Of a stretch of DNA of 64,000 nucleotides, positions 1 to 27,573 are shown piece after piece. Each line of letters begins with the position of its first letter. Position 1 is the first letter of the stretch. This DNA comes from an uncultured Candidatus Saccharibacteria bacterium (GTDB taxonomy: Bacteria; Patescibacteriota; Doudnabacteria; UBA920): positions 8 through 64,007 of the forward strand of contig CAZHIA010000007.1 in NCBI GenBank assembly GCA_964532425.1, read 5' to 3'. Position numbers and translations under genes: made by a program. The notes below the pieces were generated by a model. The model did no database searches. It saw only the letters and a list, made by a program, of their open reading frames with translations, and was not told the origin of the DNA.

Positions 1-161
1 TTACTTAACAAACTGCTTGTTGCCTGTTCCATTTGACTAGGTATGCCCCTCAGGCGGCTCTTGACAAAGTGGTTGGTATTATGTATACTATCCCGTTAAT
101 CTTTCGAGGGTATTTTCTCGAGATTACTGGTGTTTTGACATCTTCTCAGGAGGAAAAGACG

Positions 162-1208: not shown

Positions 1209-1244
1209 GTTCGTCTAGCCGAAGTGCTCATCGAAAAACTTGAA

Positions 1245-1275
1245 CCGGCCATCCTGGAAAGGATGGCCGGTTTTT
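1245..1275 (+). terminator. Rho-independent terminator: CCGGCCATCC-TGGAAA-GGATGGCCGG followed by TTTTT.
   Basis: Perfect 10-bp stem plus T-tract directly after the stop of the 162..1208 gene. Confidence 0.75.
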
Positions 1276-1350
1276 AATTTGCAGATTTAAACAATTGAGG
1301 TGTGTCAGTGAGTGCTTATTCGCACGAATAAGCACTTAGGGGGAGTAAAA

Positions 1351-1384
1351 CAAAAAAATACCCGGAAGCATTGCTGCTTCCGGG
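1351..1384 (-). terminator. Rho-independent terminator for the minus-strand gene ending at 1400: CCCGGAAGCA-TTGC-TGCTTCCGGG with T-tract on the minus strand.
   Basis: 10-bp stem. The A-run on the plus strand is a T-run on the minus strand immediately downstream of the stop. Confidence 0.7.
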
Positions 1385-1399
1385 CGGTGTGTGTTGTGC

Positions 1400-2659: not shown

Positions 2660-2976
2660 GGGTATCCTCCTTGTGTTGTAAACAGTAAAAATCCGGTATC
2701 TCAATATTCCGTCGCAGAGGCGACGTTATGAGCTCACTAACATAGTACATTTGACGGATTTTGTCAACCGTAAATTTTTTTATTGTTGTTTTGCTCTTGA
2801 CGAAAAAAATAAAATTTGCTAGTCTGGACTGTCCATCTTGTTTGGCTTCAAAGCCAACATTGTTGATGGATACAAGATTTTTGCAGGAGGCTTTCCGGAG
2901 CGGATGTGCCCATAAGGGCAGGTCCGTATTTCGGATGATCTTTAACAAATCAATACAGCACTTAGGAGAGTGCCCT

Positions 2977-3702
2977 ATGGTAGAGCTGTTGTTGTGGTAC
3001 AATCTGCCGTTCGTGCTGCCGTTCGTTGCGGCGCTTGGCTATATTCTACTCCTGGCATCAGGAGCGGTTTCCGCCGGGCACGGCGGAGAGGCAGAAGTCG
3101 ACGTTGGTCACGATGTTGATGTTGGCGATGCCGATGCGGACATGGATCATGATCTGGGTGTGGAGCACGACAGCGATGTCGGCCACGATCACGATCATGA
3201 CGCCGGTGAGCAGAGCTCGTTCGGTAAAGTGTTGGGCTTGCTGGGCGTGGGGAAGACCCCGACCAGCATTGTCTACATTTCATGGTGCCTCATTTGGGGC
3301 TTTGTCGGCTACGCGGCCAATGTGCTACTGGCGCCGGTCCTCCGGTTCCCCGGGGTTTTTTTCTGGGGTTCGGTAGCCGCTGCGCTCTTCGCCTCAATCA
3401 TGCTGACTGGTGCGCTCGCGCGCATTATCGGCCGGTTGATGCCGTCCACGGAAACGTATGTAACTCAGACCCAGGAACTGGTAGGCTGCTCCGGTGTTGC
3501 CGAGCTGGCTATCAACGAGACCTTCGGAAGGGCTCAGGTCTATGACCGGTTCCGCAATCTTCACGCTGTTCCATGCGTGGTGCGGCCCGGACAGGATCCG
3601 ATCGCAAAAGACGCCGAGGTTGTTTTAACCGGTTACGATCGGAGTGGTGGTCGATTCTATGCCAGCCTTGCAAAAAAAGCTGGCGCAGGACTCGGCCGCT
3701 AA
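2977..3702 (+). CDS. NfeD/YqiJ-like membrane protein with an N-terminal TM region, a His/Asp-rich acidic insert and a C-terminal OB-fold-like domain.
   Basis: TAGGAGAG RBS before the ATG at 2977. Several TM helices. The insert HDVDVGDADADMDHDLGVEHDSDVGHDHDHD. Located immediately upstream of a flotillin gene, as in the E. coli yqiJ-yqiK arrangement. Confidence 0.6.
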   Translation: MVELLLWYNLPFVLPFVAALGYILLLASGAVSAGHGGEAEVDVGHDVDVGDADADMDHDLGVEHDSDVGHDHDHDAGEQSSFGKVLGLLGVGKTPTSIVYISWCLIWGFVGYAANVLLAPVLRFPGVFFWGSVAAALFASIMLTGALARIIGRLMPSTETYVTQTQELVGCSGVAELAINETFGRAQVYDRFRNLHAVPCVVRPGQDPIAKDAEVVLTGYDRSGGRFYASLAKKAGAGLGR

Positions 3703-3746
3703 GCGGTAAACAATGCAGTTGAATACAGAAGTACCAGGAGAAAAGT

Positions 3747-5855
3747 ATGGCTTCCCGAAACCCGTATCCCGATGAGCAGCCCTATGCGCAGGCTCAGGTC
3801 CCGGCCCATCGTCCCCGGAAGAAGTCTTCCGGCGCAGGCCTGGGAGTAATCATGGTCTTGTTTTCGCTGATCTTCATCGTCGGCCCGTTTGCGGCCCCGA
3901 TCAAGATCGACAGCTTAAGCCGGCTCATTCTGCTTGGCTTTGGCGTGCTCACGCTGCTCATTGGCAGCATCATTTTGGTCATCACGCGGCTCTACATGAA
4001 GGCTTCGGCGAACGAAGCGTTCGTCAAGACCGGCATGGGCGGCCGCAAGGCTATCATCGACGGCGGCGCCATTGTGGTGCCGGTCGTGCATGAAGTCATT
4101 TGGGTGAGCCTCGAGACTATGAAACTCGAGATCATTAAGATGGCCAAAGATGCGTTGCTGACCATGGACAAGCTGCGTGCCGACATTCGCGCCGAGTTCT
4201 TCATTCGCGTGGAGAAAACGCAAGAAGGTGTGTTGCAGGCAGCGACCTCCCTTGGCGACCGGTGCAGTGAGCCGGCGGCGGTCAAACAACTGGTGGAAGC
4301 CAAGCTGGTTTCCGCTCTGCGCGTCGTGGCTGCGACGATGAATCTCGAGGACCTCAACAAGAACCGTGATAAGTTCGCGGAAGAGGTACAGAAGATTGTC
4401 CAGAACGACATCAAGCATAACGGCTACATGCTGGAAACCGTGACCATTTCGCACTTGGACCAGGCGCCGAAAGACACGCTCGATCCCGAGAATAACGTGT
4501 TCGACGCTGAAGGCGCGCGCAACATGGCGGCCAAGATCCAGGTTCAACTGACCGAGAAGACCGAGATCGAACAGAAGCAGGCGGTCGCTCGCGTAAAGCT
4601 GAAGGCTGCTGCCGAGCAGGAAACCAAGCAGCGCGAAGTCGAGAAGAACGAGTTCATCTTCCAGCAGGACGTCGCCAACACGAAGGCCCAGCAGGACACC
4701 GAGCTGCAGAAGAAGCAGATTCAAGCCGAAACGGCCCGCAAGACTGCTGAAGTCGAAGCGGAAAATACGGCTGCATCAGAAGCGGTGAGGGCCCAGAAAG
4801 GCCGTGAAGCGCAGGAAGCCAAGATCATCGCGGAACAGGCTGTCCAGCTTCGTAACGTGGCCAAGGAACAGGCCGTGCAAGTAGCGAACACGGTTAAGGA
4901 AAAAGAAGTTCAGGCCGCACAGATCGATCGCGATACGCTGATCAAGACCAAGACCGTCGAACAGCAGAAAGACATCGAGACGGCTACGGTCGAAAAGCAG
5001 AAGGCAGTGGAAGTCGCCAAGCGCAACCAGGAAATCACGATTGCGACCAAGGAGCAGGAACTTGCCGCCGCTGCAGCCGCTAAGCTGACCGCCGAAGCCG
5101 ATCGTGAACGGGCCAACCAGGCCAAGCTTACGGTCGAGAAGGAAGGTGAAGCCCAGCGTGCCAAGACAGTTGTGGTCATCAACAAACAGGCCGAAGCCGA
5201 ATCTCGGCAGATTGAGCAGCAAACGCAGGTAAACGTCGAGGCGTATCGCACGACCAAGCTTGCCGAAGCTGAACAGCTTGCTGCGGAGAAGACGGCGACG
5301 GCTGTCCGTACGAAGGCTGAAGCCGATCGTGACGCCAAGCAGATGGCAGCGGCTGGCGATCAGGCTGTTGCGTTGGTGCCGGTCCAGGTCAAGCAGGCCG
5401 AGGTCGATGTCGAAGCCAAGCGGGTCACGGTCCTCAAGTCCGAACTCGAAGCCAAGACAGCCAACGAGAAGATGGCGTTCGATCTGCAGGTCAAGTTGGC
5501 CGAGATCGCGGCCGACCGCGATGTTCGCATGAAGGCTGCCGAGTCTCTCGGCGCCGCCTTAAGTGGTGCGAATATGACCATTTGGGGCGACCAGCGGACC
5601 CTGGAGCAGATCTCGGGGGCGTTCTACGCCGGCCAGCAAAAGGGCAAGTTCATCGAAGGGGTTGCCAATGCCACGCCGGCTGACGTCAAGGAAGCGGTGT
5701 TCGATTCCGTCGAGCGCATCTCCGGGGCAGTCTCCAATCTGGCCAAAAACATGTTCGGCAAGGATATCTCGCCGGACATGATCGCAACGCTGGTTAACGC
5801 GGAGCTGGAGAAGCAGCGTACCGGTGCGCCGGCCGCGGCATCCGCCAAGGCGTGA
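3747..5855 (+). CDS. Flotillin-like SPFH/Band-7 protein (YqiK/FloT family) with an unusually long E/A/K/Q-rich coiled-coil tail (702 aa).
   Basis: N-terminal TM hairpin, an SPFH-like segment (IIDGGAIVVPVVHEVIWVSLETMKLE...) and a long EA-repeat region. AGGAG RBS. Terminator follows. Confidence 0.8.
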   Translation: MASRNPYPDEQPYAQAQVPAHRPRKKSSGAGLGVIMVLFSLIFIVGPFAAPIKIDSLSRLILLGFGVLTLLIGSIILVITRLYMKASANEAFVKTGMGGRKAIIDGGAIVVPVVHEVIWVSLETMKLEIIKMAKDALLTMDKLRADIRAEFFIRVEKTQEGVLQAATSLGDRCSEPAAVKQLVEAKLVSALRVVAATMNLEDLNKNRDKFAEEVQKIVQNDIKHNGYMLETVTISHLDQAPKDTLDPENNVFDAEGARNMAAKIQVQLTEKTEIEQKQAVARVKLKAAAEQETKQREVEKNEFIFQQDVANTKAQQDTELQKKQIQAETARKTAEVEAENTAASEAVRAQKGREAQEAKIIAEQAVQLRNVAKEQAVQVANTVKEKEVQAAQIDRDTLIKTKTVEQQKDIETATVEKQKAVEVAKRNQEITIATKEQELAAAAAAKLTAEADRERANQAKLTVEKEGEAQRAKTVVVINKQAEAESRQIEQQTQVNVEAYRTTKLAEAEQLAAEKTATAVRTKAEADRDAKQMAAAGDQAVALVPVQVKQAEVDVEAKRVTVLKSELEAKTANEKMAFDLQVKLAEIAADRDVRMKAAESLGAALSGANMTIWGDQRTLEQISGAFYAGQQKGKFIEGVANATPADVKEAVFDSVERISGAVSNLAKNMFGKDISPDMIATLVNAELEKQRTGAPAAASAKA

Positions 5856-7205: not shown

Positions 7206-10055
7206 ATGGACAACAATAAAATTTCTATCCGCGGAGCGCGGCAGCACAATCTGAAGAATGTGGATGTCGATCTGCCCCGCAACAAACTGATCGTCATGAC
7301 CGGGTTGTCCGGCAGCGGCAAGTCGTCTTTGGCGTTCGATACCATTTATGCCGAAGGCCAGCGCCGCTATGTGGAATCCCTGTCCGCGTATGCCCGCCAG
7401 TTCATCGGGCTCATGGATAAGCCGGATGTGGACAAAATAGAGGGCCTTTCCCCGGCCATTTCCATCGACCAGAAATCCGCCAGCCATAACCCGCGCTCGA
7501 CCGTGGGTACGGTGACGGAAATTTACGATTACATGCGCTTGCTCTACGCCCGCATTGGCATCCCGCACTGCCCGGTCTGCGGTAAGAAAATAGCCGGTCA
7601 GACCATTCAGTCTATGGTTGACCAGCTTTTGGCTTTCCCTGAAGCCACGCGCGTCATTCTGCTTGCCCCGTTCATCAAGGACCAGAAAGGCGAGCACAAG
7701 GTTATCTTCGAACAGATCAAGCGCGCCGGGTTCGCCCGCGTGCGCGTAGACGGCGTACTGATGGATTTGGCCGAAGCCCAGCGTTTGAATTTGGACAAGC
7801 AGAAGAAGCACAGTATTGACGTGGTAGTGGATCGTCTTTCCATCTCCAAACAGGACAAGGGCAGAATTGCCGAAAGTTTGGAAAAAGCCGTTGACCTGGG
7901 CGATGGTATTGCCATGGTGCTTGTGATGAAAGGGGATAAAGCGGAAAAGGAACTCACCTTGTCGCAAAAGTTTGCCTGTCCGGACGGACACATTCAGCTT
8001 TCTGAACTTGATCCGCGCGATTTTTCCTTTAACAGCCCGCATGGTGCCTGTCCGGAATGCAAGGGTCTCGGGACCAAGCTGACGGTGGAACCTGACCTGG
8101 TCATCCCGAATCCCAAACTGACCCTGGCCGAAGGAGCCATCCGTCCCTGGAGCAAGACTACCTCGCGCCTGTCCTGGTACAGCCGCATTATGCAGGCTGT
8201 GGCCAAGGAATATGGTTTTTCCGTTAACACCCCGGTCAAGGACCTGCCTAAAAAGTTTGTGGATGTTATTCTGTACGGCACCGGCGACAAGAAGGTTAAG
8301 GTGGCGGGGGAATTTACCACGCGCGAAGGCGAATTTGAAATGATGACTGCGTTTGAAGGTGTTATCGGCAATTTGGAACGCCGCTACAAGGAGACGGATT
8401 CCGACTATATGCGCGGCGAGATCGAGAACTACATGCGCATCCGCACCTGCCAGGTCTGCCATGGCAAGCGCCTCAAGCCCGAAGTGCTCGGTGTGACTGT
8501 AGGGGACTGCAACATCGTGGATGTTTCCAATATGACCATCGAAAAAACGGCGGACTTTTTCAATACGCTCCCGAAGAAAATTTCGGGCAAGGACCAGGAA
8601 ATAGCCAAGCAGGTCTTAAAGGAGATTAACGCGCGCCTGTCGTTCCTTTTAAATGTTGGCTTGTCATACCTGTCGCTTGACCGCACCGCAGACACCTTGT
8701 CCGGCGGGGAAGCGCAGCGCATTCGTTTGGCTACCCAAATAGGCTCCGGCCTGACCGGTGTCCTCTATATATTAGACGAACCATCCATCGGCTTGCACCA
8801 GCGCGACAACGGCCGCTTGCTGCAGACACTCAAGGATTTGCGTGATTTGGGTAATACTGTCATTGTCGTCGAACACGATGAAGAGACCATCCGCGAGGCT
8901 GACTGGGTCGTGGACATTGGGCCGGGTGCCGGCAAGCACGGCGGGGAAATTGTGGCCGAAGGAACACCCAAGCAGATTGAGAAGGACACCAAGAGCGTGA
9001 CCGGGCAGTATTTGTCCGGCAAGGAAATGATCGAGGTGCCCAAACGCCGCCGTCCGGGCAATGGCCGCAAAATTTCCGTAGTCGGAGCCGAAGAGTTTAA
9101 TTTAAAAAATGTCAGCGTAGACATCCCGCTTGGGAAATTCGTCTGCGTGACTGGTGTGTCCGGTAGCGGCAAATCCACCTTGTTCAATGATATTCTGGCC
9201 AAAGCCCTCTATAAATACTTCTGGGGCAGCAAGGACGAGCCGGGCAAGCACAAAAAGATTTTGGGCATGGAGCATATCGACAAGATCATCAACATTGACC
9301 AGAGTCCTATTGGCCGCACGCCGCGGTCGAATCCGGCCACCTATACCGGACTGTTCACGCCCATTCGCGAACTGTTTGCGGATACGCGCGAGGCGCGCAT
9401 GCGCGGCTACAAGGCCGGGCGCTTCTCGTTCAACGTTAAAGGCGGACGCTGCGAACGCTGCGCCGGCGACGGCGTGCTGCGCGTGGAAATGAACTTCTTG
9501 CCTGATGTCTATATTACCTGTGAGGAGTGCCACGGTAAGCGCTATAACCGCGAGGCGCTGGAGATCCACTATAAAGAACGGACCATTTCTGATGTTCTGG
9601 ATATGACCGTAGACGAGGCTAAGACCTTCTTCGCTTCGGTGCCGGCCTTGTTTAAGAAGCTGGAAATTTTGTCGCAGGTCGGTCTGGGTTACATGCGCCT
9701 CGGTCAGAATGCCACGACCCTGTCCGGCGGTGAGGCCCAGCGCATTAAGCTGGCTACGGAACTTTCGCGCGCCAGCACGGGCCGTACCTTGTATCTTCTG
9801 GATGAGCCGACCACCGGGTTGCACTTTGCCGATGTGAAGAGGTTGATCCACGTTTTGAACCGCCTTGTCGACAAAGGCAACACGGTTGTGGTCATCGAGC
9901 ACAATCTGGATATGATCAAGACTGCGGACTGGATTGTTGACCTCGGACCCGAGGGAGGGGACAAGGGCGGGACCATCGTGGCCACCGGCACGCCTGAAGA
10001 CATTGCTAAAGTAAAGGCGAGCTACACGGGGCAGTATCTGAAAAGCATACTATAG
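7206..10055 (+). CDS. uvrA: Excinuclease ABC subunit A (UvrA).
   Basis: 949 aa. Two ABC ATPase modules with Walker A ([24 protein letters not shown]), LSGGE signatures and zinc-finger Cys pairs. N-terminus [24 protein letters not shown] is typical of UvrA. Confidence 0.96.
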
Positions 10056-10386
10056 TGAAATAGAGAATTAGAGAACTAGTGAACTAGAGAAATAGTAAAC
10101 TAGAAAAGCGAAAAGTAGAACACGGATAAACACTGATAAAATACAAACTGATTAACACAGATAAACCGCCTCGACAATCTGATCGGGGTGGTTTTGTAGA
10201 GCAGGCCCATGGCCTGCATGTGTAGGGGCGGGTCGCTACCCGCCCTTTTGCATTGTCATTGCGAGTCGTTTAAGGGCTTTGGCTTAAACGGCGTGGCAAT
10301 CTCTTTCATCTGGTGTAGATTGCTTTGTCAACAAGTCAAAACCCTTGCTTCTTCACAATGACAAGCAAATTATCTCATATATGCTA

Positions 10387-10422
10387 TTCATCACAATTCA
10401 ACGATCGTTGAATTGTGATGAA
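10387..10422. repeat. 36-bp perfect palindrome TTCATCACAATTCAACGA|TCGTTGAATTGTGATGAA.
   Basis: Exact 18+18 inverted repeat read directly from the sequence. It sits just upstream of the terminator for the minus-strand gene ending at 10509. Confidence 0.8.
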
Positions 10423-10423
10423 T

Positions 10424-10475
10424 AAAAAACACCCCGCTCTTTGATTCGCCAATTGGCGAAAAAGGGCGGGGTGTT
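10424..10475 (-). terminator. Terminator for the minus-strand gene ending at 10509: ACACCCCGC...GCGGGGTGT stem, a nested TTCGCCAATTGGCGAA palindrome, and a T-tract on the minus strand.
   Basis: GC-rich stem. The A-run on the plus strand equals a T-run on the minus strand. Confidence 0.65.
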
Positions 10476-10508
10476 GTCGTATGTCGAAGTCAGGCGAGAT
10501 TATGGGAC

Positions 10509-10940
10509 TTACTCGTGGACCACGTGCTCCTCATAGAGCGGGAACACGTAGACATCGTACTCCCTGTTGAGTAACCAGCATTTGCGGCTGGAGATCTCCG
10601 AGCGGACCACTATAGCGACCAGGTTTATGCCGGGGCGCAGATGGTCGGAAATAATTCTTCCGATTGTCTCAGACGCAGGAATGGCGCTGACATGAAACGA
10701 GCCATCTGTCTCGACAATCAGGTAGGGTTGCTGGAGGTAAACCAGCTTGTCGTTGTGGTTGCGATTTCCTACCAAGTGTTCGCTGGTCATGCTCCCCAGG
10801 TCCTGGTCCAGTTTGGAAAACTGGCAGAACGCGATGTGGTGGACCTTGTCCTTGACCAGCTCGTCTGTCGCCTTCGGATCGACAACCAGCTTTAGCCACG
10901 GGTTGTCTTCCAGAATCTTTCTGTACTTTTCGACTTTCAT
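10509..10940 (-). CDS. Hypothetical protein (143 aa).
   Basis: GAGGAGGA RBS 4 nt upstream of the ATG on the minus strand. No family recognised. Confidence 0.6.
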   Translation of the reverse strand: MKVEKYRKILEDNPWLKLVVDPKATDELVKDKVHHIAFCQFSKLDQDLGSMTSEHLVGNRNHNDKLVYLQQPYLIVETDGSFHVSAIPASETIGRIISDHLRPGINLVAIVVRSEISSRKCWLLNREYDVYVFPLYEEHVVHE

Positions 10941-10994
10941 CGTATCCTCCTCTTCCGGATTTGGATTTTACCAGCCCGCCCTTCCGGGGCACTC

Positions 10995-11100
10995 GGCTGG
11001 GTACTACTAGTGGAACCTGTAGCGTACCGGTTCATCGGCAACCCAAAGCCCATAAACCTGTCCCGTCGAATGACGGGATGGGCACGCTACAAAATCGTTC
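10995..11100. repeat. Structured element copy A, closed by GTAGCGTACC...GGCACGCTAC, containing a CCCGTC-GAAT-GACGGG hairpin and a TTGCCGATGAAC core.
   Basis: The outer 10-nt inverted repeat and the inner conserved block TTGCCGATGAAYCGGYACGCTAC are shared with a second copy at 17163..17220. Confidence 0.5.
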
Positions 11101-11182
11101 TGTCTTACTGCCTCTGCAGCAAGCCTCTGGTGAGACTTGCTCGAGAAGCAGGCGGATCAAGGTGCGATCCGCCAATGCGTGG

Positions 11183-11908
11183 TTAGCGTTGTTGTGGGAC
11201 GGCGGTGGCGTCGATCACAGGCGTGGCCGAGTATATCGGCGTGGCGGTTTGAGTCATGCAGAGCCAGGGTTCGCCCTGGTCCAGCATGGCCCAGTAGACC
11301 GGGTGCCTCCCGCTGGCATCACAATCCAGAAAGTCCACTACCTGGTGGCCTGGTTTAACGGTTTTGATGTGTCCGTCTGGAAAGCGAATCGCATACTGCC
11401 ATCCGTCGGCCGAGTCGCGGTTCCCGACGGTTCCGAGCAGCGTGCCGTCCAAAAGTTCGTAGTCGTCGCGGAACGTCCTGCTTTTTCGGTGATTGTAGAT
11501 GACGAGCGCCAGGACTAGGACAGCGAATGCTATTACCAACGCGATGGGGCTGCTGTACTCCGAGAAAAACGACGCTTTCTTTGTGTAGGGCGTGGCGAAG
11601 TCGCCGGTCTGAGTCTTTCCTTCCAGAGCGTCGAACACTCTGTCGAATGCGTGACCAAGCTTTAAATCAGCTTGTGATTGTTGAAACTTTGTCGCAGCCT
11701 TTCCTTTAACGGTATGGCTGCTGTCTTGTTTCCATTTGTCAGCGCACACGATAACGGTCTCTCTGTGGTCGTCGACGGCCGCGATCTGGTATTTGCAGCC
11801 GGACTGATGAGCAGGGAGAGAGGGGTAGCTTTCGGTGGCGATGTCAACGCTGGCAAAAGCCAGCGCGGAAATTACCAGAAAGAGAACAACAGTAGTGGGC
11901 GTCCTCAT
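11183..11908 (-). CDS. Paralog 1 of a tandem pair of single-pass membrane proteins: signal peptide, Cys-containing extracytoplasmic domain, TM helix, and a conserved C-terminal GTVGNR-x4-GWxYAIR domain.
   Basis: AGGAGGA RBS before the MRTPTT start. Clear similarity to the downstream paralog in the signal region, the CADKW motif and the C-terminal GTVGNRDSADGWQYAIRFPDGH block. Confidence 0.6.
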   Translation of the reverse strand: MRTPTTVVLFLVISALAFASVDIATESYPSLPAHQSGCKYQIAAVDDHRETVIVCADKWKQDSSHTVKGKAATKFQQSQADLKLGHAFDRVFDALEGKTQTGDFATPYTKKASFFSEYSSPIALVIAFAVLVLALVIYNHRKSRTFRDDYELLDGTLLGTVGNRDSADGWQYAIRFPDGHIKTVKPGHQVVDFLDCDASGRHPVYWAMLDQGEPWLCMTQTATPIYSATPVIDATAVPQQR

Positions 11909-12063
11909 AACGCGTAATCCTCCTGTTTTGGTGAACTGGATCCACGGATCTTTCCTAGACCCGCATAAATTTACCTCTTCAGTCAGCCTCAATGGAGACT
12001 AACTAGAGAAGCAGGCGGATCGTGGTGCGATCCGCCGGTGCGCCATATGGCGCGGATTGACGC

Positions 12064-12876
12064 TTACGCGACGGCTAACTCGACTGCCCGGTCCCTGGTC
12101 TCAATGTACCAGGGGCTGTCGTTATCATCGAACCCGGCGACGTACGCCGGGTACTTGTGAGCTTCGGAGAAGTCGGTGAGGTCTTCGACCTCGTGCCCGA
12201 CTTCCACGGCTTCGACCACCCCATCCTTGTCACGGATGGCATACTTCCACCCATGTTTCTTGTTGCGGTTGCCGACTGTGCCGAGCTCCGTGCCGTCCGA
12301 GAGTTTGCATTCGCTCTGGAAAGTCTCTTTTCTGAAGGGGCTGGGTTTCGTGATCACGAATGACATTGTGAACAGGAATCCGATCCATAATACAGCAAGG
12401 AACATTGTGGTTGGGCCAGAGTACTGCTCGGTGGACGAAGGACGGTTGATTTCGTCCTTGATCGCAGCTAGCTCTCGTTCAGCCTGGTGGAGCTCACTTT
12501 CGAACATGAGGTTGGAAAGCTCCGCGACTTGACGCCGGAGCCTGAGCAGCTCGCGATGGTCAAGCTCAGCCTGCACACCTCTTGAGACCGCGGCGTTGAC
12601 GTTGGCGCGGGTCGCGTTGACCCACTTGTCTGCGCAGGTGACTGACGTGGTTCCGTTATCCCACATCGTAGGGATGGGGTTTTTGCACGTCGTATCCTTC
12701 TCTACGATCGCGCCATCCGCTTTCACGTAGGTGTCCGTGCAGACAAACTTCGTCTGCCCATTTTTTGCCAGCGTCAGCTGGCAGGAGGTGGAAAGGGTGG
12801 GATAGCTCGTGGTAGCAACGTCGGTACTGCCAAACATGGCAGCCGAAATCATCAGGGCGAGTGTAAGCGTCTTCAT
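12064..12876 (-). CDS. Paralog 2 of the tandem membrane-protein pair. It also carries a coiled-coil segment before the TM helix.
   Basis: AAGGAGGG RBS 6 nt before the MKTLTLAL start. C-terminal GTVGNRNKKHGWKYAIRDKDG block matches paralog 1. The same 3' hairpin motif (GGCGGATC..GATCCGCC) follows each paralog. Confidence 0.6.
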   Translation of the reverse strand: MKTLTLALMISAAMFGSTDVATTSYPTLSTSCQLTLAKNGQTKFVCTDTYVKADGAIVEKDTTCKNPIPTMWDNGTTSVTCADKWVNATRANVNAAVSRGVQAELDHRELLRLRRQVAELSNLMFESELHQAERELAAIKDEINRPSSTEQYSGPTTMFLAVLWIGFLFTMSFVITKPSPFRKETFQSECKLSDGTELGTVGNRNKKHGWKYAIRDKDGVVEAVEVGHEVEDLTDFSEAHKYPAYVAGFDDNDSPWYIETRDRAVELAVA

Positions 12877-12982
12877 GAATACCCTCCTTGAACATAGGCC
12901 CGAATGTAGCTCTCCGTGAGCTCTAAGGCCGGGGTTGGGGGAGGGGAATCCCACAAACCTGGCATTACAGCTTTAACTGTAT

Positions 12983-13011
12983 ATTATAGCACTTTTTATA
13001 CTTTTTGTCAA
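12983..13011 (-). promoter_or_regulatory. Consensus sigma70 promoter on the minus strand (TTGACA, 17 nt, TATAAT) driving the 12064..12876 paralog.
   Basis: The reverse complement reads TTGACAaaaagtataaaaagtgcTATAAT, located upstream of the AAGGAGGG RBS. Confidence 0.6.
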
Positions 13012-13052
13012 CACTAAAACCCCTTATTTAACAGGGGTTTTGGGGGTTATTC

Positions 13053-13080
13053 TTGACATCTTAGAGAAAAACCGTATAAT
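13053..13080 (+). promoter_or_regulatory. Near-consensus sigma70 promoter (TTGACA, 16 nt, TATAAT) facing the 13170..13739 gene.
   Basis: ttgacatcttagagaaaaaccgtataat. Divergent from the minus-strand promoter, with an AAAACCCCT...AGGGGTTTT hairpin between them. Confidence 0.55.
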
Positions 13081-13169
13081 TAATAGTCCGCTTCTGGCGG
13101 ATATCAAAGGCGCGGCCGCCTTACAAATTCCGGCCGTTATCGCCCTATGGGTGATGCGAGGAGGATCTG

Positions 13170-13739
13170 ATGATCAGCCTTTCTTTGACAATAATGTGCA
13201 GCGATGCGCAACTTGAGGATTTTATCCGAGGGTTTTCACCCCGGGTCAGTAAGATCACTTCGCAGACCATTGTCGATGGCGTCACTAGGATCGTCGATCT
13301 GGTGTGGGAAGAAACCCCAGCTGCGCCCGTGTATCTGGAAGAACCGCTGTGGCATTTTTTCCACGCGCACATCCCGATCTGGGGAGCTGAAGTTTCCATC
13401 GATCAGCAGTTGGGAAGCGGCACCTCATTTTCCCAGGATGGGTACGAAGGTTCCTGGGGATACAACCGCGAGCGGAGGGTTTCCTACTTCCGGCTGCGCG
13501 CGCTGACCGGGGAAGCCTGCGAGAAGATCACGGTTCTGTATTACCAGTTCATGCCGGTTTTTTTACTCTCCTTCAGAATCGCGCGGAAGAACGCCCAGGC
13601 ATTCGGTTTGTGCTGTACGGGGACAATTCCCAAGGCCAAAGAAAAACTGACAGAAGTTTCGTCAGGCATCCATCAGCTTGTTGATGATGTATTCAACAAC
13701 CTGCTGACGTATCAGATGCCGTCGGCGAAAAAAGCCTGA
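13170..13739 (+). CDS. Hypothetical protein (189 aa).
   Basis: GAGGAGGA RBS 4 nt before the ATG. No family recognised. Confidence 0.5.
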   Translation: MISLSLTIMCSDAQLEDFIRGFSPRVSKITSQTIVDGVTRIVDLVWEETPAAPVYLEEPLWHFFHAHIPIWGAEVSIDQQLGSGTSFSQDGYEGSWGYNRERRVSYFRLRALTGEACEKITVLYYQFMPVFLLSFRIARKNAQAFGLCCTGTIPKAKEKLTEVSSGIHQLVDDVFNNLLTYQMPSAKKA

Positions 13740-14117
13740 GAGGTAAAACAAATGCAGCGGTCGCACCTCGTGCGGCCGCTCTTTTTATTTGGTGTTAGCA
13801 CATGTTAACGTACCCCCCTCCCGTCAGTCCGACTGACGGACTCCCCCTATGTAGGGGGAGAGTGACTGCAAGGTGTAGGTCTTCTTACCATAGTAAGTGA
13901 GACGATCTGTTTCCTGCAGTGATGTAGGGGAAGCTACTAGCTTCCCTTGTTTGTGTGAGGGCGGTTAATAACCGCCCCTACATCAGAAGCAGCGGGTTAC
14001 AATTGTTCCAAATTTTTTATTTTTCTATCTTTCTATCAACAGGCCTGCACTACATTGAGATGGTGATCGTCTCAATAAAAAATGCCCCGCCCAAAGAACA
14101 AAGGGCGGGGTGTGTTG

Positions 14118-14366
14118 TTATTTGCCGTCATCGGGGAGGGGGAGTCTGGTGTCGCCGAGCCAAGGAAAATGGGCGTGCAGCCGATCCGAGAGGTGGAGCG
14201 TCCTGTCGAAATCTTTGGAATTGGCAACTGCCATCCGGCCGATGGGGTGCACATGGTGCTGCGCATTGACTGCGGCCTGGCCGCCAAAGGCGGTGATGAG
14301 CTCCTCGGTAAGGCTGGCGTCTTGATGATTGCGCTCGTCGCGTCGGATGGGGATGATGCGTGCCAT
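14118..14366 (-). CDS. Small hypothetical protein (82 aa).
   Basis: Strong GGAGGA RBS 3 nt before the ATG on the minus strand. Preferred over the overlapping plus-strand ORF 14082..14459, which has no RBS. Confidence 0.5.
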   Translation of the reverse strand: MARIIPIRRDERNHQDASLTEELITAFGGQAAVNAQHHVHPIGRMAVANSKDFDRTLHLSDRLHAHFPWLGDTRLPLPDDGK

Positions 14367-14596
14367 ATATCCTCCTGCACATATGGTAGCAAAAAAACAA
14401 CCATAGAGCGAGCGGAGCGAAGCACCTATTTATTCTCCCCCTCCGCAAGTCCGACGTAGCCTTGTGCGAAGTTGGATAGGGGGGAGATGTCCGCCTGAGG
14501 CGGACAGAGAGGGTGTTTATTCGGGCGACCTAGCGATATTGTTGTAAATTTTCGGCTTGGACAAACGTCTTTTATGGTAACTATAGATCCAAACCT

Positions 14597-15829
14597 ATGA
14601 ACATAAAATTTGCGAGTGTTGCGTTTAGCGCTGTTACGGTATTGATGTTATTTGCAGCCCAACCGGCTCGCGCCCAGCAAGTCCCAACATCAACTGGGAC
14701 TGGACAGGCGAGCCTGTCGGGCACAGGCACGTATGATTCCCAGACCGGACAGATCCACTACCAACTTTCCTTTCAGGCCCCGACTGGCACCGCAGTGTCT
14801 CTCATGGTGCCAATTCCTGCAGGTACGACTTTTGTCCCATCCAGTACTCCCGGTACCTTAAACAATAAAGCGGTGGTCTGGGACGTGCGCGGCAGTACGG
14901 CGACAAGTGTCACGTTCTCAGTCTTGGTCGATGCGGCACATATGCTTGATCCGTGGGCGTCAACAATCGTTTCCGTGAATCCCGGTACTGACAGGTTCGG
15001 CAATCGGATTGCTATTCCCGCGGCTGACCAAAAACAAGCCTTAGGACAGGGTGATGGGAATTCGGTGCCTTTAGGGTTCGGCGGCAGCATGGTCCTGGCA
15101 TTCAAAATGCCGATAATCAACGGCCCAGGGGATGATGTGGCAGTATATACGCCGGACAGTCTGGGTCAGGCTATTAAAGTGGAGGCCAGCCAAAATGGCA
15201 GTGATTGGCTGACGCTCGGTACGTTCCATCAGAGCGGTTCGGCAGACTTGGGAAGCTTGCCTTCGGCAACATTTATCCGCCTGACGGATGTCTCGCCCAT
15301 TTCCAGCTCTAACGATTTAGGTTATTCAATAGATGCGGTCCGGCAGTTACAGCTGGTCCCTTTCTCGTGCGGCATAGTCACTAATCCGACGCTGGTCGGA
15401 CAATTTGGCACGCTCGCCACGGCTTCTATTCGTACGGACATCGTGCAAGGATGCGGCGGGGGATCGGGCATGAGCGGTGTACCTATGTCAGGAGTTTCGC
15501 CACCGGCAACTCCAACCTCATCTCAAACTTCCACTGGTTCTGTTCCAACAGCATCAAATACTAACGGCGGCAGTGGGAGTTCGACTGGCTCGCCGGGGAG
15601 CAATCCTGCGGGTGCAGCAGCAGAGCCGACAGGGCCTTATATTGGCAGTAACGGGTTGCTGCATTTGCCGCTCAGTTCAGGCGGAGGAGCGGGGAGCCCT
15701 TCCGGGGAGGTTTTGGGAGCAGGTACGACGTTGCCGCGAACTGGCATACCGCTGGAATTTTACGCTTTTCTATCCCCGGCAATCTTGTATCCGTTATTGA
15801 GGAAGCACGGGAGTGTGAAGAATAAATAA
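14597..15829 (+). CDS. LPXTG-anchored cell-surface protein (sortase substrate).
   Basis: N-terminal signal peptide (MNIKFASVAFSAVTVLMLFAAQPARA). S/T/G-rich body. C-terminal LPRTG followed by a hydrophobic stretch and a basic tail (RKHGSVKNK). Confidence 0.7.
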   Translation: MNIKFASVAFSAVTVLMLFAAQPARAQQVPTSTGTGQASLSGTGTYDSQTGQIHYQLSFQAPTGTAVSLMVPIPAGTTFVPSSTPGTLNNKAVVWDVRGSTATSVTFSVLVDAAHMLDPWASTIVSVNPGTDRFGNRIAIPAADQKQALGQGDGNSVPLGFGGSMVLAFKMPIINGPGDDVAVYTPDSLGQAIKVEASQNGSDWLTLGTFHQSGSADLGSLPSATFIRLTDVSPISSSNDLGYSIDAVRQLQLVPFSCGIVTNPTLVGQFGTLATASIRTDIVQGCGGGSGMSGVPMSGVSPPATPTSSQTSTGSVPTASNTNGGSGSSTGSPGSNPAGAAAEPTGPYIGSNGLLHLPLSSGGGAGSPSGEVLGAGTTLPRTGIPLEFYAFLSPAILYPLLRKHGSVKNK

Positions 15830-15984
15830 TCTTACTCTATCTTTTTCAAAGATGTTCCCTTAAAGTATTTTTAAGCTTCAGGTTTATTCAGCGTACTATC
15901 AGCGGGTTGTAACAAAAAAACCGCCAAGCTGCTGCTTGGCGGTTGGGGTGGGTTCGTGATGTGCGCGATGCGGGGGTGCTATCA

Positions 15985-17124
15985 TTAGTCGATCTTGACG
16001 ACTTCTGCGATCTTGTCGCTACCGGGCTTTTTTCGAATAACTCTCTTAGTAGAGAGTTTGAGTGTCGGGATCGAAGGATCTTTTCGATTGCCGTCCAGGA
16101 TGACCGTGTCATATAGCTGGATGTGGCTATACCTCGGTGGGTCTGGAACCGGATCTGGCGGGTTGCTTGCCGCGGCAGCTGCCGGAACTGTCCTCATGGT
16201 GGGGACGGTGTCCATGTCCATCTGGCTGTAGGGCTGGGTAAAGATGGACGGAATCCGGTACACCGGTTGATCCTTTGATCCGGGAGGGTCCAGGAACTCG
16301 TCGAGTTTCTGCGAGACCCAGTCCCAGAACCTGCTCCAGCTCGGCATTTTGACCTTAGTGGTCCACTGGGGTAATCCGAACTTGAACTTGGGGACTGTGA
16401 CCTTGAACCTCGGTATATGCCAATCCGGCATCTTCGGCCTGGATACCTTGATCTTAGGGAACTTAACCTTGCCGAGCAGTTCTCTGATGCGTTGGCGGTT
16501 GTTGTAAGCCAGCATCAACAGAGCACATATGGCTCCCAGCAGAACCGTCCAGGCAATGACAGTCACGACCTCTATAAAGAACGAAGTATTCGTACCAGTG
16601 GCCTGCTTGCCGTTCTTGCGGCTGCCGCCTAAGGTGCGGTCTGCGTTCTGTTTCGGGGCTGCAGACTTGGGCTGGGCAGTCGACTGGGGGGCAGGGTTCT
16701 TCTGGACTCCGTTACCCGCACTTGGCACCGTAACAGTAACTACGGTATTGTTCGGATCAGGTGCCTTGGTGCTCGAAATCGTCCGCTGGGGGGCGTTCGT
16801 CTGCCGGGTAGCCACTCGAGTGGGGGAATACGTCGCGTTTTCCCATGCGAGCCACTCGGCTACTTCCTGATGGTTAACAGTCGCAGTGACTGGCAACCAA
16901 ACCGGCTGGCCTTCCTGCAGTTGACGGATGTCGGTTTTCTGGATCTTCTGTGTCAGACTGGCGTTCAGGTACAGGTTCGGGTACAGCGTAGGCTTATAGC
17001 CATTCATCTGGAGCGTGGTCCAGGCGGACCGGTGGATATGCATCGCAACAGCCTTAGTGGTCTGTGCGAAGCTTGCCACCATGAACAGCACCAAAAGAAT
17101 GATGGTGCGCATCACGAATTTCAT
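15985..17124 (-). CDS. Hypothetical membrane protein with a signal peptide, a central TM helix and a cytoplasmic Lys/Pro-rich repeat region (KVKFPKIKVSRPKMP...).
   Basis: GGAGGAG RBS before the MKFVMRT start. Topology read from the hydrophobic segments. Confidence 0.55.
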   Translation of the reverse strand: MKFVMRTIILLVLFMVASFAQTTKAVAMHIHRSAWTTLQMNGYKPTLYPNLYLNASLTQKIQKTDIRQLQEGQPVWLPVTATVNHQEVAEWLAWENATYSPTRVATRQTNAPQRTISSTKAPDPNNTVVTVTVPSAGNGVQKNPAPQSTAQPKSAAPKQNADRTLGGSRKNGKQATGTNTSFFIEVVTVIAWTVLLGAICALLMLAYNNRQRIRELLGKVKFPKIKVSRPKMPDWHIPRFKVTVPKFKFGLPQWTTKVKMPSWSRFWDWVSQKLDEFLDPPGSKDQPVYRIPSIFTQPYSQMDMDTVPTMRTVPAAAAASNPPDPVPDPPRYSHIQLYDTVILDGNRKDPSIPTLKLSTKRVIRKKPGSDKIAEVVKID

Positions 17125-17162
17125 GACTCCTCCTAAAATACAAAAGGAACAATTGGGTTCTG

Positions 17163-17220
17163 TAGCGTGCCCATTCATGGGTCTCTCCGGATTGCCGATG
17201 AATCGGCACGCTACCAAACC
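17163..17220. repeat. Structured element copy B: GTAGCGTGCC-CATTCATGGG...CCGATGAATCG-GCACGCTAC.
   Basis: 10-bp outer inverted repeat plus inner CATTCAT/ATGAATG arms. Shares TTGCCGATGAAYCGGYACGCTAC with copy A at 10995..11100. Lies in the 5' leader of the 15985..17124 gene. Confidence 0.5.
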
Positions 17221-17264
17221 TGTTTCGAAGGAACGTTCGAGATTGTTGTCTCGCTTTTGCTTTT

Positions 17265-17435
17265 GTAGGGGCGGGTCGAGACCCGCCCAGAGAAGAGGAA
17301 CGGTCGAGACCGTTCCCTACAGCTGTAGTGCAGGCCCGTGGCCTGCAATGACAGCCAGGTATTTAGGCAGGCCACGGGCCTGCACTACAAGAGAGCCAGT
17401 TCCATCTGCCTGTAGGGGCGGATAGTATCCGCCTG
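17265..17435. repeat. Cluster of GC-rich REP-like palindromes, including a 22-bp-arm inverted repeat GTAGTGCAGGCCCGTGGCCTGC...GCAGGCCACGGGCCTGCACTAC (17325..17388).
   Basis: Four consecutive hairpins (GGGCGGGTC-GAGA-CCCGCCC, GGAACGGTC-GAGA-CCGTTCC, the 22-bp-arm IR, and GGGCGGATA..ATCCGCC). Related copies occur at 10196..10245, 13841..13984, 28900..28975, 29229..29282 and 38140..38215. Confidence 0.6.
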
Positions 17436-17660
17436 TGATGGGACCATGGCTGGCGCTCCTTACGCAAAAGCCAAACAACAAAATGTCATCATATTATACC
17501 GTTTTTCGGGAAAAAGTCAAGAGCTATTAAACCTAATTCCTCACTCTTCGCCAAGGCTTCGGAGGACAGGTAATTTCCAATAAACTTAGCTGTTTAGTAT
17601 TTGCTCTTCGGCCATAAATTAGAAATTGGATATTAGAAATTGGATATTTTATAAACTACC

Positions 17661-18236
17661 ATGCCCTCCCCCCGTTCCCTTCTATTCTCCTCTATTATAA
17701 TACTCGCGCTATTTAGCGTACTCAATTTTGGCTATGTCTCCAAACAGGTGGTATACCGGTTAGGGATTCATACGTCCGAGCCGATGTCTGAGATCCAGAG
17801 AAGCGGTGTTTCCAACCGGGTAGTGGTCCCGAGCCTGCACATAGACGCGCCCCTCGTTGAACCGCGGGGTACCTCCGACAATGAGTTTGAAGCGGCTCTG
17901 GCCGGCGGCGTGGTGCACTATCCGGGAACAGCCGAACCGGGCGAGCAGGGGACTTGCTATCTGTTTGGTCACAGCTCGGACTACCCTTGGGTAGCCGGAA
18001 AGTACAAAGCAGTTTTTGCGCTGCTTCCCTCTATAAAGACGGGCGAGCAGGTGATACTTTTTGGACAGGAGGGAAAGCCGTACATTTATACGGTCACGGG
18101 GACCAAAGTCGCAGCTGCAAGCGATGTGCAGTACGTGCAATTAAAAGATCTTTCAAAAAAGCAGCTCATCCTCCAAACCTCGTACCCGGTAGGCACGGCG
18201 GCGAAAAGGTTTTTAGTGTTTGCTGAGATGAAATAA
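17661..18236 (+). CDS. Sortase-family protein (SrtA-like fold) with Ser at the position of the catalytic Cys.
   Basis: N-terminal TM anchor. YLFGHSS aligns with SrtA IAGHTF (His). KKQLILQTSYP aligns with QLTLITCDD, with Cys replaced by Ser. AAKRFLVFAE aligns with EKRKIFVATE (Arg). An LPXTG substrate gene lies 1.8 kb upstream. Confidence 0.65.
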   Translation: MPSPRSLLFSSIIILALFSVLNFGYVSKQVVYRLGIHTSEPMSEIQRSGVSNRVVVPSLHIDAPLVEPRGTSDNEFEAALAGGVVHYPGTAEPGEQGTCYLFGHSSDYPWVAGKYKAVFALLPSIKTGEQVILFGQEGKPYIYTVTGTKVAAASDVQYVQLKDLSKKQLILQTSYPVGTAAKRFLVFAEMK

Positions 18237-18270
18237 AAAATCCGTTCCGGCAGTAAGCCGGAACGGCGGT
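18233..18270. terminator. Bidirectional terminator CCGTTCCGGC-AGTAA-GCCGGAACGG between the sortase gene and the convergent 18273..18590 gene.
   Basis: 10-bp stem with a preceding A-run and a following T-containing run. Confidence 0.65.
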
Positions 18271-18272
18271 GG

Positions 18273-18590
18273 TTAGCGTCCTGTGATCCAGACCGCAACA
18301 GGGCAGGAGCCGTGGTGGAGCTCGTCGTAGTATCGCTGCCACTCCGTTTCGGGAACGTAGTAGCAGCCGTACGCGCGGCGGAACTTGCCGAGCTTTTCTT
18401 TGGCCGCAGCTTTGGCTGCGTGCGAGACCGGATATATAATCCTGTACTTAGCGGTGCTGGCGATCAGCATATCTGTGCCTTCGCACTTTGCCGTGGATTT
18501 GTCCAGCCAGTTTATGGGACTGAAAAAAATATCCCGGGTCAGATAGACGAGCAATGCCAGAACTGCGACAATCGCTATGGCTGTGAGCAT
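18273..18590 (-). CDS. Small membrane-anchored hypothetical protein (105 aa).
   Basis: AAGGAGGG RBS 5 nt before the ATG on the minus strand. N-terminal TM helix. Confidence 0.5.
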   Translation of the reverse strand: MLTAIAIVAVLALLVYLTRDIFFSPINWLDKSTAKCEGTDMLIASTAKYRIIYPVSHAAKAAAKEKLGKFRRAYGCYYVPETEWQRYYDELHHGSCPVAVWITGR

Positions 18591-19829
18591 AGTTTCCCTC
18601 CTTTACGTATTACGGCTTATCATAGAGTTTTGGGAGGCCGCTGTCAAGCCATAAAAATTTGACTCGAAGGCTGTTTTTATTGGGGAAAAAATTCCAAAAA
18701 CACTCAAAAATAAGGGGTTTTTGCTATTGCAATTTAAGAATTGGTTGCTATAATAATTACAGCCAAAAACAAAATGGCAATTCAAAAAAGTCATGGTTTA
18801 TAGAGTGACTTTTTTAATTCGGAGACAAATATATGATGGCCTTTGAGCCGCACAATTCCTGTGGAATCCAAATATCGAAAGCCCGCCAGACCTTCGTGTT
18901 TTAGTACGGGTTTTTTAATTTGTATTTCACGGTCGATTGTCTGCCTATGGCAGATAGAAATACATTAAAAAGACTTATGAGTTTTGCCCTCATCCCGGAT
19001 CAAGTCCGGGGCAAGCACTAACCTCTCTCTTTAAAGGGAGAGGAATAGATGCAGTGTCTCCTCTCCTTGTCTAAGGAGAGGATTAAGGTGAGGTTGTCTG
19101 CATTCGTATTCGAGTGACAGATGAGGTAATAAGAAAAAATCTTTCACCGCGAAGCACCTAAGTCTGCAGAATATAAAAGACTCTCCTATTGTTTGCGCAA
19201 TAGAAGAGCCCGTGGCACTCTCAAACGGGGGGTGCCCGATAAGAGAGTGCAAAAGAAAGCTACACGTGATCATGGCTAGCGACCTATGACTTTTGTGTTG
19301 CTTTCATGTGCCTTGCGGCGTTGTCATTTTACCATTTTTGAATAGTTTTTTCAAGGGTTTTAGGCCTAAAAGTTGATTCGCTGTAAGTTTAAGCGAGATT
19401 TTCTCAAACTCTTTCTCAGCCAGACCTTCTTCCGAGAGGTGAGAGGCTTAGTATTTCCTCTCCTTATCATAGGAGAGGATTAAGGTGAGGTTATATGTGT
19501 TTGTGACTTGCAGTGCATGAAAAGAATCAGCGATTCTCAAAAGAATTTGGCCTTCAATAAGGGGTCGTCAATAAAATTCAAATTTACCCGCACACCAAAG
19601 TTGTCTGAATAGGTTATTAGTAACTTTGGAATCTCCAGTAAGAATCTCACATCATTGTTAGATGAATTTGGTGTGTGGGATTAGTTGATTGCTCCTATTG
19701 GGGGCGTTAAAAAATTCTTTAATCTTTCTCTCTGTGTCATTCTGAATTTATTTCAGAATCCATGGATTCCGGCTCTTAGGCCGGAATGACACAAAAGTCA
19801 GTTCTCAAGCAAACAATTAAATTCTAAGT

Positions 19830-25880: not shown

Positions 25881-25909
25881 TTACCATCTAACCGCTAACA
25901 TTCAAGACC

Positions 25910-27409: not shown

Positions 27410-27417
27410 GCAATAAA

Positions 27418-27450
27418 ATCCTCCGCCCATATTTGGGCGGAGGATTTTAT
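27418..27450 (+). terminator. Rho-independent terminator AATCCTCCGCCC-ATATTT-GGGCGGAGGATT + TTT.
   Basis: 12-bp stem with a trailing T-run directly after the stop at 27409. Confidence 0.7.
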
Positions 27451-27516
27451 ATATCCATCAACACCCCGCACCATCTTAGTTTTGAAATAACCTAGATTCA
27501 ACACAGCAAAATTTAA

Positions 27517-27558
27517 TTCAGTGGGGAAGTTGTACAAATGTACAACTTCCCCACTGAA
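27517..27558. repeat. Perfect 20-bp-arm hairpin TTCAGTGGGGAAGTTGTACA-AA-TGTACAACTTCCCCACTGAA (copy 1).
   Basis: Exact inverted repeat. A second copy with loop TT (the exact reverse complement) lies at 28298..28339. Confidence 0.85.
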
Positions 27559-27573
27559 ATCGAAACAAAAATA

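Follow-up and report, generated by a model that had tools for sequence, protein, structure and literature searches.

Tandem orphan membrane proteins and a co-duplicated 3' double stem-loop in a variable locus of Candidatus Doudnabacteria

Two adjacent minus-strand genes in a 64,000-nucleotide stretch of a Candidatus Doudnabacteria (Patescibacteria/candidate phyla radiation, CPR) genome (contig CAZHIA010000007.1; the whole stretch is called the window below) are, judged from their sequences, real, lineage-specific paralogs, here named A and B. It is proposed that they encode bitopic type I membrane proteins, an anatomy that we hold to be highly probable, and the family is new in the narrow sense that it matches no known family or fold. 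Each gene is followed by a double stem-loop, and this co-duplicated, structure-preserving 3' RNA element is the most distinctive feature of the locus. The genes, lettered A to C and all on the minus strand, and the two copies of the element are as follows:

12064..12876, minus strand: gene A, 270 amino acids (aa); signal peptide, two Cys-pair modules, long helix, transmembrane (TM) segment and C-terminal domain
11183..11908, minus strand: gene B, 241 aa; layout as in A with one Cys-pair module
10509..10940, minus strand: gene C, 143 aa; orphan with no relation to A and B, predicted to be cytoplasmic; strong Shine-Dalgarno sequence GAGGAGG
11972..12042, minus strand: double stem-loop after A, with a 9-bp and an interrupted 17-18 bp hairpin; -39.3 kcal/mol, z -7.0
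11109..11179, minus strand: double stem-loop after B, the second copy; sense-strand fold -41.5 kcal/mol, z -5.9

Tandem paralogs A and B

A preliminary description of this DNA had taken A and B for tandem paralogs, and BLASTP agrees (E=6e-28, 28% identity across 260 columns). In a MAFFT alignment the two proteins are 34% identical, and the motifs quoted in that description, CADKW, LGTVGNR and GW(K/Q)YAIR..DG, are invariant columns. The identity is unevenly spread: it reaches 53% in the signal peptide and mature N-terminus (D[VI]AT.SYP.L) and 44% in the C-terminal domain, and amounts to 33% in the Cys module, 26% in the TM helix and 20% in the helical linker. Nucleotide identity of the codon-aligned genes is 0.49/0.62/0.40 at positions 1/2/3 (50% for the coding DNA overall), and this order, 2 > 1 > 3, indicates protein-coding genes under purifying selection whose synonymous sites are near saturation; the duplication would thus be old, with both copies maintained. 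A third paralog is absent from the window by tblastn, six-frame hmmsearch and regex motif scans.

The coordinates of A, B and C agree with the list of open reading frames (ORFs) and with independent gene calls on two public Logan contigs, which stem from two further sequencing runs and are 100% identical to the window. That A and B are non-functional or mis-called, either as decaying duplicates or as chance ORFs, would be in keeping with their want of homologs, but we regard it as extremely improbable: in addition to the codon-position pattern, the long ORFs have stayed intact despite divergence to 34%, Shine-Dalgarno sequences and a perfect promoter are present, the motif is also conserved in an unrelated metagenome protein, and the further sequencing runs gave the identical sequence.

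Protein architecture and predicted topology

For both proteins that description gives a signal peptide, a Cys-containing ectodomain, a single TM helix and, at the C-terminus, a conserved block, and all four are found in each. In A the signal peptide is followed by the conserved mature start DVATTSYPTL, and the signal-peptide-like segment of B carries a cleavage-type motif, AFA followed by S. The ectodomain holds a module whose two Cys residues are separated by 16 residues and which has CADKW at its end; B has a single such module (C38-C55, CADKW), and A has two Cys-pair modules (C32-C46 and C64-C81), the second of which is closed by CADKW. The greater length of A had been attributed to an extra coiled coil, an attribution that does not hold, as the main difference is a 29-residue insertion forming an additional copy of the Cys-pair module, C32-x13-C46-TDTYV (FVCTDTYV against VTCADKWV). 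The two Cys-module halves of A are 40% identical (E=3e-5), and its helix 82-142, taken from a low-confidence model, is just ~13 residues longer than the aligned region of B.

Each protein has one strong internal hydrophobic segment (159-175 in A, 122-138 in B), judged, like the signal-like N-termini, by rule-of-thumb analysis, and in both there are three basic residues (+3) in the eight positions that follow it. By the positive-inside rule, these basic residues together with the signal-like N-terminus predict an N-out/C-in, type I orientation. Neither protein has an LPXTG sorting signal, and ~90 residues follow the TM segment in both. We propose that a cleaved signal peptide exports a small head, probably braced by disulfides, with a single Cys-pair beta-hairpin module in B and two in A, and that this head would be borne on an alpha-helical stalk joined to a single TM anchor, with a ~90-residue all-beta domain at the inner face of the membrane.

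A double stem-loop duplicated with the genes

A hairpin common to the 3' ends of A and B, GGCGGATC-N7-GATCCGCC, had been pointed out earlier and is indeed present after both genes, at exactly two sites in the 64 kb (11151-11173 and 12014-12036); this count is not decisive alone, as two matches arose in 8 of 100 shuffles at the 3-mismatch setting. The repeated unit is larger than had been described, however, the hairpin being merely the first half of a duplicated 69-71 nt element. The accompanying claim that the duplicated unit extends to the 3' end of the gene is sound, for the two elements are 80% identical across 69 nt, compared with 50% for the coding DNA and 40% for third codon positions. 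Both copies stand directly after the stop codon, in the same place. All 26 of the 26 pairs form in both copies, with two compensatory changes (U-A to C-G; U-G to A-U) and two one-sided ones (G-C to G-U), and the differences affect 6 of 52 paired columns and 9 of 19 unpaired ones (Fisher p=0.002). Either selection or local gene conversion accounts for this conservation.

The sense strand folds at -39/-42 kcal/mol (z -7/-6), whereas the antisense fold is weaker at -30/-34 kcal/mol (z -3/-4). This advantage of 7-10 kcal/mol is due to G-U pairs, of which each copy has three to four, and it suggests that the structure matters in the transcript. In being GC-rich, very stable, strand-specific stem-loops right after a stop codon, the elements resemble intrinsic terminators, from which they differ in having no U-tract after the stems (GUAAAUUUAUG after A, AGUAAGACAG after B). 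A terminator scan missed both of them and reported the U-tract terminator of a 189-aa gene at 13756-13780, and the terminator after C was identified by folding. Since a U-tract is missing here though true U-tract terminators occur in the locus, the elements are read as processing, stabilising or partially attenuating structures. Their placement within an operon would be analogous to that of mRNA-stabilising repetitive extragenic palindromic (REP) stem-loops, such as the intra-operon REP of E. coli malE-malF, which shields upstream mRNA segments from 3' exonucleases. In contrast to REP/REPIN sequences, which bear a GTAG tag, the A/B elements are untagged (GTAG is absent from the flanks of GGCGGATC-N7-GATCCGCC). 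REP/REPIN sequences have many dispersed extragenic copies; of the A/B element, two copies occur in the 64 kb of the window. The roles of REP sequences have been reviewed (PMC3733652). We see about an even chance that the double stem-loop acts in RNA as a 3'-protecting or attenuating element; it would protect 3' ends or partly attenuate, thereby setting the relative amounts of A, B and C, and would not be a full terminator.

The hairpins might instead be repeats at the DNA level (REP-like or miniature inverted-repeat transposable element-like palindromes, or recombination sites), duplicated along with the gene and having no function as RNA. The region is rich in GTAG-tagged palindromic repeats, palindromes can be maintained at the DNA level, and the arms of TGTAGGGGCGGAT-AGT-ATCCGCC at 17411 resemble GGCGGATC. 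However, beyond the missing tag and the low copy number in the window, a search with a covariance model of the two elements turned up no further significant match, either elsewhere in the 64 kb or in related genomes totalling 1.5 Mb; several of the G-U pairs become A-C mismatches on the other strand, which is why the sense strand folds better; and the position right after the stop codon is equal in both copies. We consider this alternative improbable. The covariance model gave one marginal match, at 17056-17140 of contig L026 from a related Patescibacteria genome (24.3 bits, E=0.018). Rfam searches, at the gathering threshold and at E<=1, returned two tRNAs and chance miRNA-like hairpins, with no match to the element.

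A probable transcription unit

The following features surround the genes:

12983..13011, minus strand: A-B(-C) promoter; TTGACA, 17-nt spacer including an extended TG, TATAAT; 12/12 consensus
10421..10474, minus strand: intrinsic terminator after C; GC-rich stem followed by UUUUUUAUU; -32.3 kcal/mol, z -5.7
13053..13739, plus strand: divergent neighbour, comprising a 12/12 promoter (13053..13080), a 189-aa orphan (13170..13739) and a U-tract terminator (13756-13780)
11018..11091, no strand assigned: palindromic element with a GTAG tag, TGTAGCGTGCC ... GGTACGCTACA, in the B-C interval, presumably within the leader of C

The consensus promoter that had been noticed before the distal copy, A, matches at 12 of 12 positions and includes the extended TG (13011..12983); it is the only strong promoter on the minus strand and is separated by a leader of ~100 nt from the ATG of A at 12876. 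Shine-Dalgarno sequences precede both genes, AAGGAGG 7 nt upstream of this ATG and AGGAGG 10 nt upstream of the ATG of B, and from these expression signals A and B would be strongly expressed. The unrelated 143-aa gene reported downstream, C, is present, and the minus strand has its first U-tract terminator behind it. A single strong promoter, the Shine-Dalgarno sequences and the position of this terminator point to an A-B-C transcription unit, of which C is probably the last gene. A, B and probably C would thus be transcribed from one very strong sigma-70-type promoter, and transcription would stop at the U-tract terminator after C.

The 189-aa orphan shares its repeat-bounded module with A, B and C, and its promoter is back to back with that of A (12983-13080). 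Between the two -35 boxes lies a 9+9 palindrome, AAAACCCCT-N8-AGGGGTTTT (13014-13043), which could be a shared operator or insulator. The tagged element at 11018..11091 has a related copy at 17161-17215, upstream of another minus-strand gene, and the leaders of C (10941-11090) and of a 382-aa membrane protein described below (17150-17220) share a structure with GUAGCGUGCC...GG(U/C)ACGCUAC as its closing sequence. In the leader of C this structure is a three-way junction (-68.9 kcal/mol, z -4.6); it may be REP-derived or a shared regulatory leader. Just past the terminator of C, at 10385-10424, there is a perfect 40-bp palindrome without spacer, TATTCATCACAATTCAACGA followed directly by TCGTTGAATTGTGATGAATA. 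The public contig L001 ends within it, at 10395, and has its other end within an inverted doublet at 17324-17389.

Relatives of A and B

When 1.84 billion representatives were scanned exhaustively by HMMER, the A/B profile returned A, B and one more protein, P0003 (E=2.3e-4; pairwise tblastn E = 1e-7 to 1e-8), an uncharacterised 151-aa metagenome protein encoded on a contig of Logan run SRR28285590 (locus L003, 5678-6133). P0003 shares with A and B the juxtamembrane ETF motif and the pattern L-x-DG-x-x-LGTVGN-x-x-K-x-x-W-x-[YF]-A-[IL]-R-x-x-[DN]-G, followed by a beta region, and on these sequence features its homology to A and B is credible. It differs from them in being a single copy, in lacking the Cys-pair ectodomain, the helical stalk and a double stem-loop at its 3' end, and in having its hydrophobic segment at the N-terminus, with basic residues before it and the domain directly after. 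Because the signal or anchor stands right before the domain, export is predicted for the domain of P0003, in contrast to A and B. The preliminary description had called the C-terminal domain cytoplasmic; the positive-inside rule upholds this for A and B, and the predicted export of the domain in their only outside homolog weakens it.

The annotated ATG of P0003 is only ~5 nt past its -10 box (TATAGT), and an in-frame GTG at L003:5733 with an AAGGAG ribosome-binding site is the likely true start, so that P0003 is probably 133 aa long and not 151 aa, and begins with an MKKN-type signal peptide or anchor. Positions 1-5300 of the same contig form a 30%-GC element, probably an integrated mobile element, which ends in a 516-aa large serine recombinase; the 3' end of the recombinase ORF overlaps a tRNA-Glu(CTC) gene (5222-5294, minus strand). 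The P0003 gene lies on the 42%-GC host side of this tRNA gene and the recombinase in the low-GC element on the other side, and on this ground P0003 was rejected as prophage cargo.

Other searches added no members. In a collection of 15 billion proteins, A, B, C and the 189-aa protein are each a singleton cluster. When B, A and the C-terminal alignment served as queries in word-index protein searches, nothing came back beyond the query itself or P0003; such a search missed the other paralog despite the shared LGTVGNR and an E-value of 6e-28, and its negatives say little about absence, for which the HMMER scan is the informative one. The A/B profile found nothing in viral contigs or in a genome-contig collection in which the source genome is not included, and the one match in metagenome contigs (L004) proved false, the matching stretch FDGWQYAIRNPDEA being part of a 520-aa FolD-like fusion protein. 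When A, B, C and the neighbouring orphans were compared by tblastn and six-frame hmmsearch with 80 uvrA neighbourhoods of related Patescibacteria, no members were found. The suggestion that this is a diversifying, possibly expanding family is therefore not borne out by two copies here, none in the 80 neighbourhoods and one relative among 1.84 billion representatives.

The C-terminal domain

The ~90-residue C-terminal domain of A and B is predicted to be all-beta. Our AlphaFold model of the C-terminal 98 residues, built from a three-sequence alignment (A, B and P0003), has a pLDDT of 71.8, a pTM of 0.61 and seven beta strands. The domain had been left unassigned in the preliminary description, and it stays so after searches of Pfam, NCBIfam, PHROGs, PADLOC and PDB and Foldseek comparisons with PDB and BFVD, none of which gave a significant match. 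The best hit in PDB sequence searches with the A/B profile, the C-terminal-domain profile and C was no better than E=0.6, and at E<=1 Pfam and NCBIfam gave only DUF6799 and Tudor_3 noise for A and B; DUF6799 matched A only, at 17.7 bits, below its gathering threshold of 26.8. The sole PADLOC match in a scan of A, B, C and P0003 was that of B to MTase_II (E=0.013), which is not meaningful, and PHROGs gave no match for A, B or C.

The nearest likeness is to the Tudor/SH3-like barrel (Pfam Tudor_3, PF18115), whose core is resembled by the succession of a strand, a basic loop, a (G)W.YAIR strand, a DG turn and a further strand in the domain. The Pfam match is confined to B and is sub-threshold (E=0.02-0.06, 13.6-15.2 bits against a 25.8-bit cut-off), whereas neither A nor P0003 matches, Foldseek returned no SH3/Tudor structure, and the seven-stranded model has two strands more than a minimal SH3/Tudor barrel. 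The comparison suggests an SH3/Tudor-like core in the domain and is a lead, not a result.

The genomic locus

The module lies between uvrA (7206..10055) and genes at 29242.., 30129.. and 31198.. that are hrcA, grpE and dnaK by Pfam. The uvrA product identifies the organism, being 84-86% identical to its counterparts in metagenome-assembled genomes of Candidatus Doudnabacteria and other Patescibacteria. In 27 relatives homologs of these three genes follow uvrA, and from uvrA to the hrcA homolog the distance is 0.1-7.2 kb, as against 19.2 kb in the window (10056-29241), and the genes at 10.1-17.2 kb have no homolog in any of the 80 uvrA neighbourhoods. In relatives the cargo of this gap is very varied: CcdA/thioredoxin-like clusters, pilus genes, or a sortase accompanied by an LPXTG protein. 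Here the gap is occupied by the module of the 189-aa gene and the A-B-C unit and also by the following:

14597..15829: orphan 410-aa protein with LPRTG, a TM segment and a basic tail, RKHGSVKNK
15985..17133: orphan 382-aa type I membrane protein with signal peptide, ectodomain, TM segment and a long basic cytoplasmic tail
17661..18236: sortase
19830-25880: 2016-aa Ig-repeat protein with Big_5, HYR, Big_12 and Big_1 repeats
within the uvrA-hrcA gap: CHB_HEX_C/Fn3-associated protein

The remainder of the window is housekeeping in character, with dnaJ, topA, dprA, pth, der, LCP and MacB-type ABC transporter genes. A mobile element was considered as the source of the insertion and rejected, as the 64 kb encode neither an integrase or transposase nor a RAYT and show no GC deviation. 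The A/B pair thus looks like part of a strain-specific hot spot of envelope-gene turnover, set between two housekeeping operons and with no recognisable mobile element.

GTAG palindromes occur at 10195-10245, 11018-11091, 13920-14054, 17156-17434 and 29228-29283; within the window they are confined to the uvrA-hrcA gap, where they stand at gene-module boundaries. Three GC-rich classes starting with (T)GTAG can be told apart, TGTAGGGGCGG..CCGCCC, TGTAGTGCAGGCC..GGCCTGCACTACA and TGTAGCGTGCC..GGCACGCTACA, many of them as inverted doublets. Two classes are strongly over-represented, one with 5 matches where 0.03 were expected and the other with 6 where 0.07 were expected, and the third has 4 against 0.9 expected, a number reached in none of 100 shuffles. 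The combination of a GTAG tag and a hairpin is the hallmark of REP/REPIN sequences, which are mobilised by RAYT transposases (PMC3733652, PMC2817692). Right after the uvrA stop codon, at 10056-10170, there is a run of AT-rich short imperfect repeats (TAGAGAA/CTAG, then GATAAAC-like units ~11 nt apart).

Possible roles of A and B

It is proposed that A and B are components of the envelope or surface of an episymbiont, with a part in surface recognition, attachment or envelope organisation. The 19-kb insertion is otherwise rich in surface genes (the sortase, the LPRTG substrate, the Ig-repeat protein and the type I protein), which makes an envelope or surface role the likeliest one. As an argument from locus context, this leaves such a role possible but doubtful, and the whole package of protein anatomy, RNA element and surface role is put at somewhat less than an even chance.

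Several points weigh against this proposal. The argument from the surface island is one of guilt by association in a single genome. None of A, B and C has an above-threshold match in Pfam, NCBIfam, PHROGs or PADLOC, or a characterised homolog; Foldseek found nothing significant for the domain model in PDB or BFVD (best PDB hit E=0.09, TM 0.33); this model rests on three sequences; and the full-length AlphaFold model of A is unusable (pLDDT 39.8). The topology of A and B conflicts with that of P0003, which means that one of the two predictions is mistaken or that the domain can function on either face of the membrane. The stem-loop has only two copies, for which the covariation shuffle control was uninformative (124/500), and gene conversion confined to the 3' end could keep it similar. 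The co-transcription of C is deduced solely from the absence of a terminator before it.

The preliminary description had counted this architecture among those typical of signalling, anti-sigma or immunity modules, and nothing in the locus supports that assignment: neither a sigma factor, kinase or regulator nor a toxin or defence gene can be recognised beside the pair, and the predicted topology is the reverse of that of classical anti-sigma factors. A transmembrane signalling or anti-sigma-like module, in which the ectodomain would sense an external cue and the inner domain would bind or release a partner (C or the 189-aa protein) and so change transcription, agrees with the small variable ectodomain and better conserved inner domain (44% against 20-33% identity), with the cytoplasmic orphan C in the unit, and with the 189-aa orphan that diverges from a shared control region containing the palindrome at 13014-13043. 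Like A and B, anti-sigma factors have one TM helix between an extracytoplasmic and a cytoplasmic part. Those of the zf-HC2/RskA type are N-in, C-out, however, the reverse of the orientation predicted for A and B, and the adjacent sigma factor gene is absent here. Neither A nor B matches any anti-sigma model of Pfam or NCBIfam, including the N-terminal anti-sigma domain, and the C, 189-aa, 410-aa and 382-aa proteins contain no sigma-70 region 2 or 4 or any other Pfam or NCBIfam domain; no helix-turn-helix, kinase or receiver domain is detectable in C, the 189-aa protein or the neighbours. A and B therefore show none of the three defining anti-sigma features (the domain, an adjacent extracytoplasmic function sigma gene, and N-in/C-out topology). 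In addition, both promoters are perfect consensus sequences, suggesting constitutive high expression and not tight regulation, and P0003 is entirely without an ectodomain. We consider a signalling role unlikely.

An accessory role in defence or immunity, with A and B as membrane phage-exclusion or immunity proteins carried as cargo of a variable island, has about the same low probability. The pair is strain-specific, occupies a hypervariable locus, is absent from the 80 related genomes, and belongs to a module that is bounded by GTAG-tagged palindromic repeats and has its own strong promoter; P0003, too, stands alone as a small gene under a promoter of its own, close to a tRNA gene that has an integrated low-GC element beside it. 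Against this, PADLOC and PHROGs offer no match, and tblastn found none for A in 50,697 phage and 72,556 plasmid records or for C in the phage records. No toxin, nuclease or effector gene is nearby, no integrase or transposase is encoded in the window, the GC content is the same as that of the flanks, and P0003 is on the host side of the tRNA gene, outside the element.

A bolder reading, to which we accord very little probability, is that A, B and P0003 represent a previously unseen all-beta fold and a new class of episymbiont envelope protein, with the stem-loop as a dedicated cis-acting RNA element. The element might then set the A:B:C stoichiometry, or be bound by the inner domain of the proteins for membrane-localised translation or autoregulation. 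On this reading the family of membrane proteins would bring along a structured 3' RNA partner of its own whenever the gene is duplicated.

Significance

With essentially no relatives of A and B among ~15 billion public proteins, their value is mostly that of a documented negative. CPR genomes commonly carry orphan membrane proteins in their variable loci; the A/B family is new yet not unusual for these bacteria, of whose orphan genes it is a clean example, and no new kind of biology is shown. The double stem-loop provides a small, well-defined case of a structured 3' element that is co-inherited with its gene. If the envelope reading is true, loci such as this one would likely be where the host-attachment specificity of episymbionts evolves, and A and B would be candidates for a part in it.

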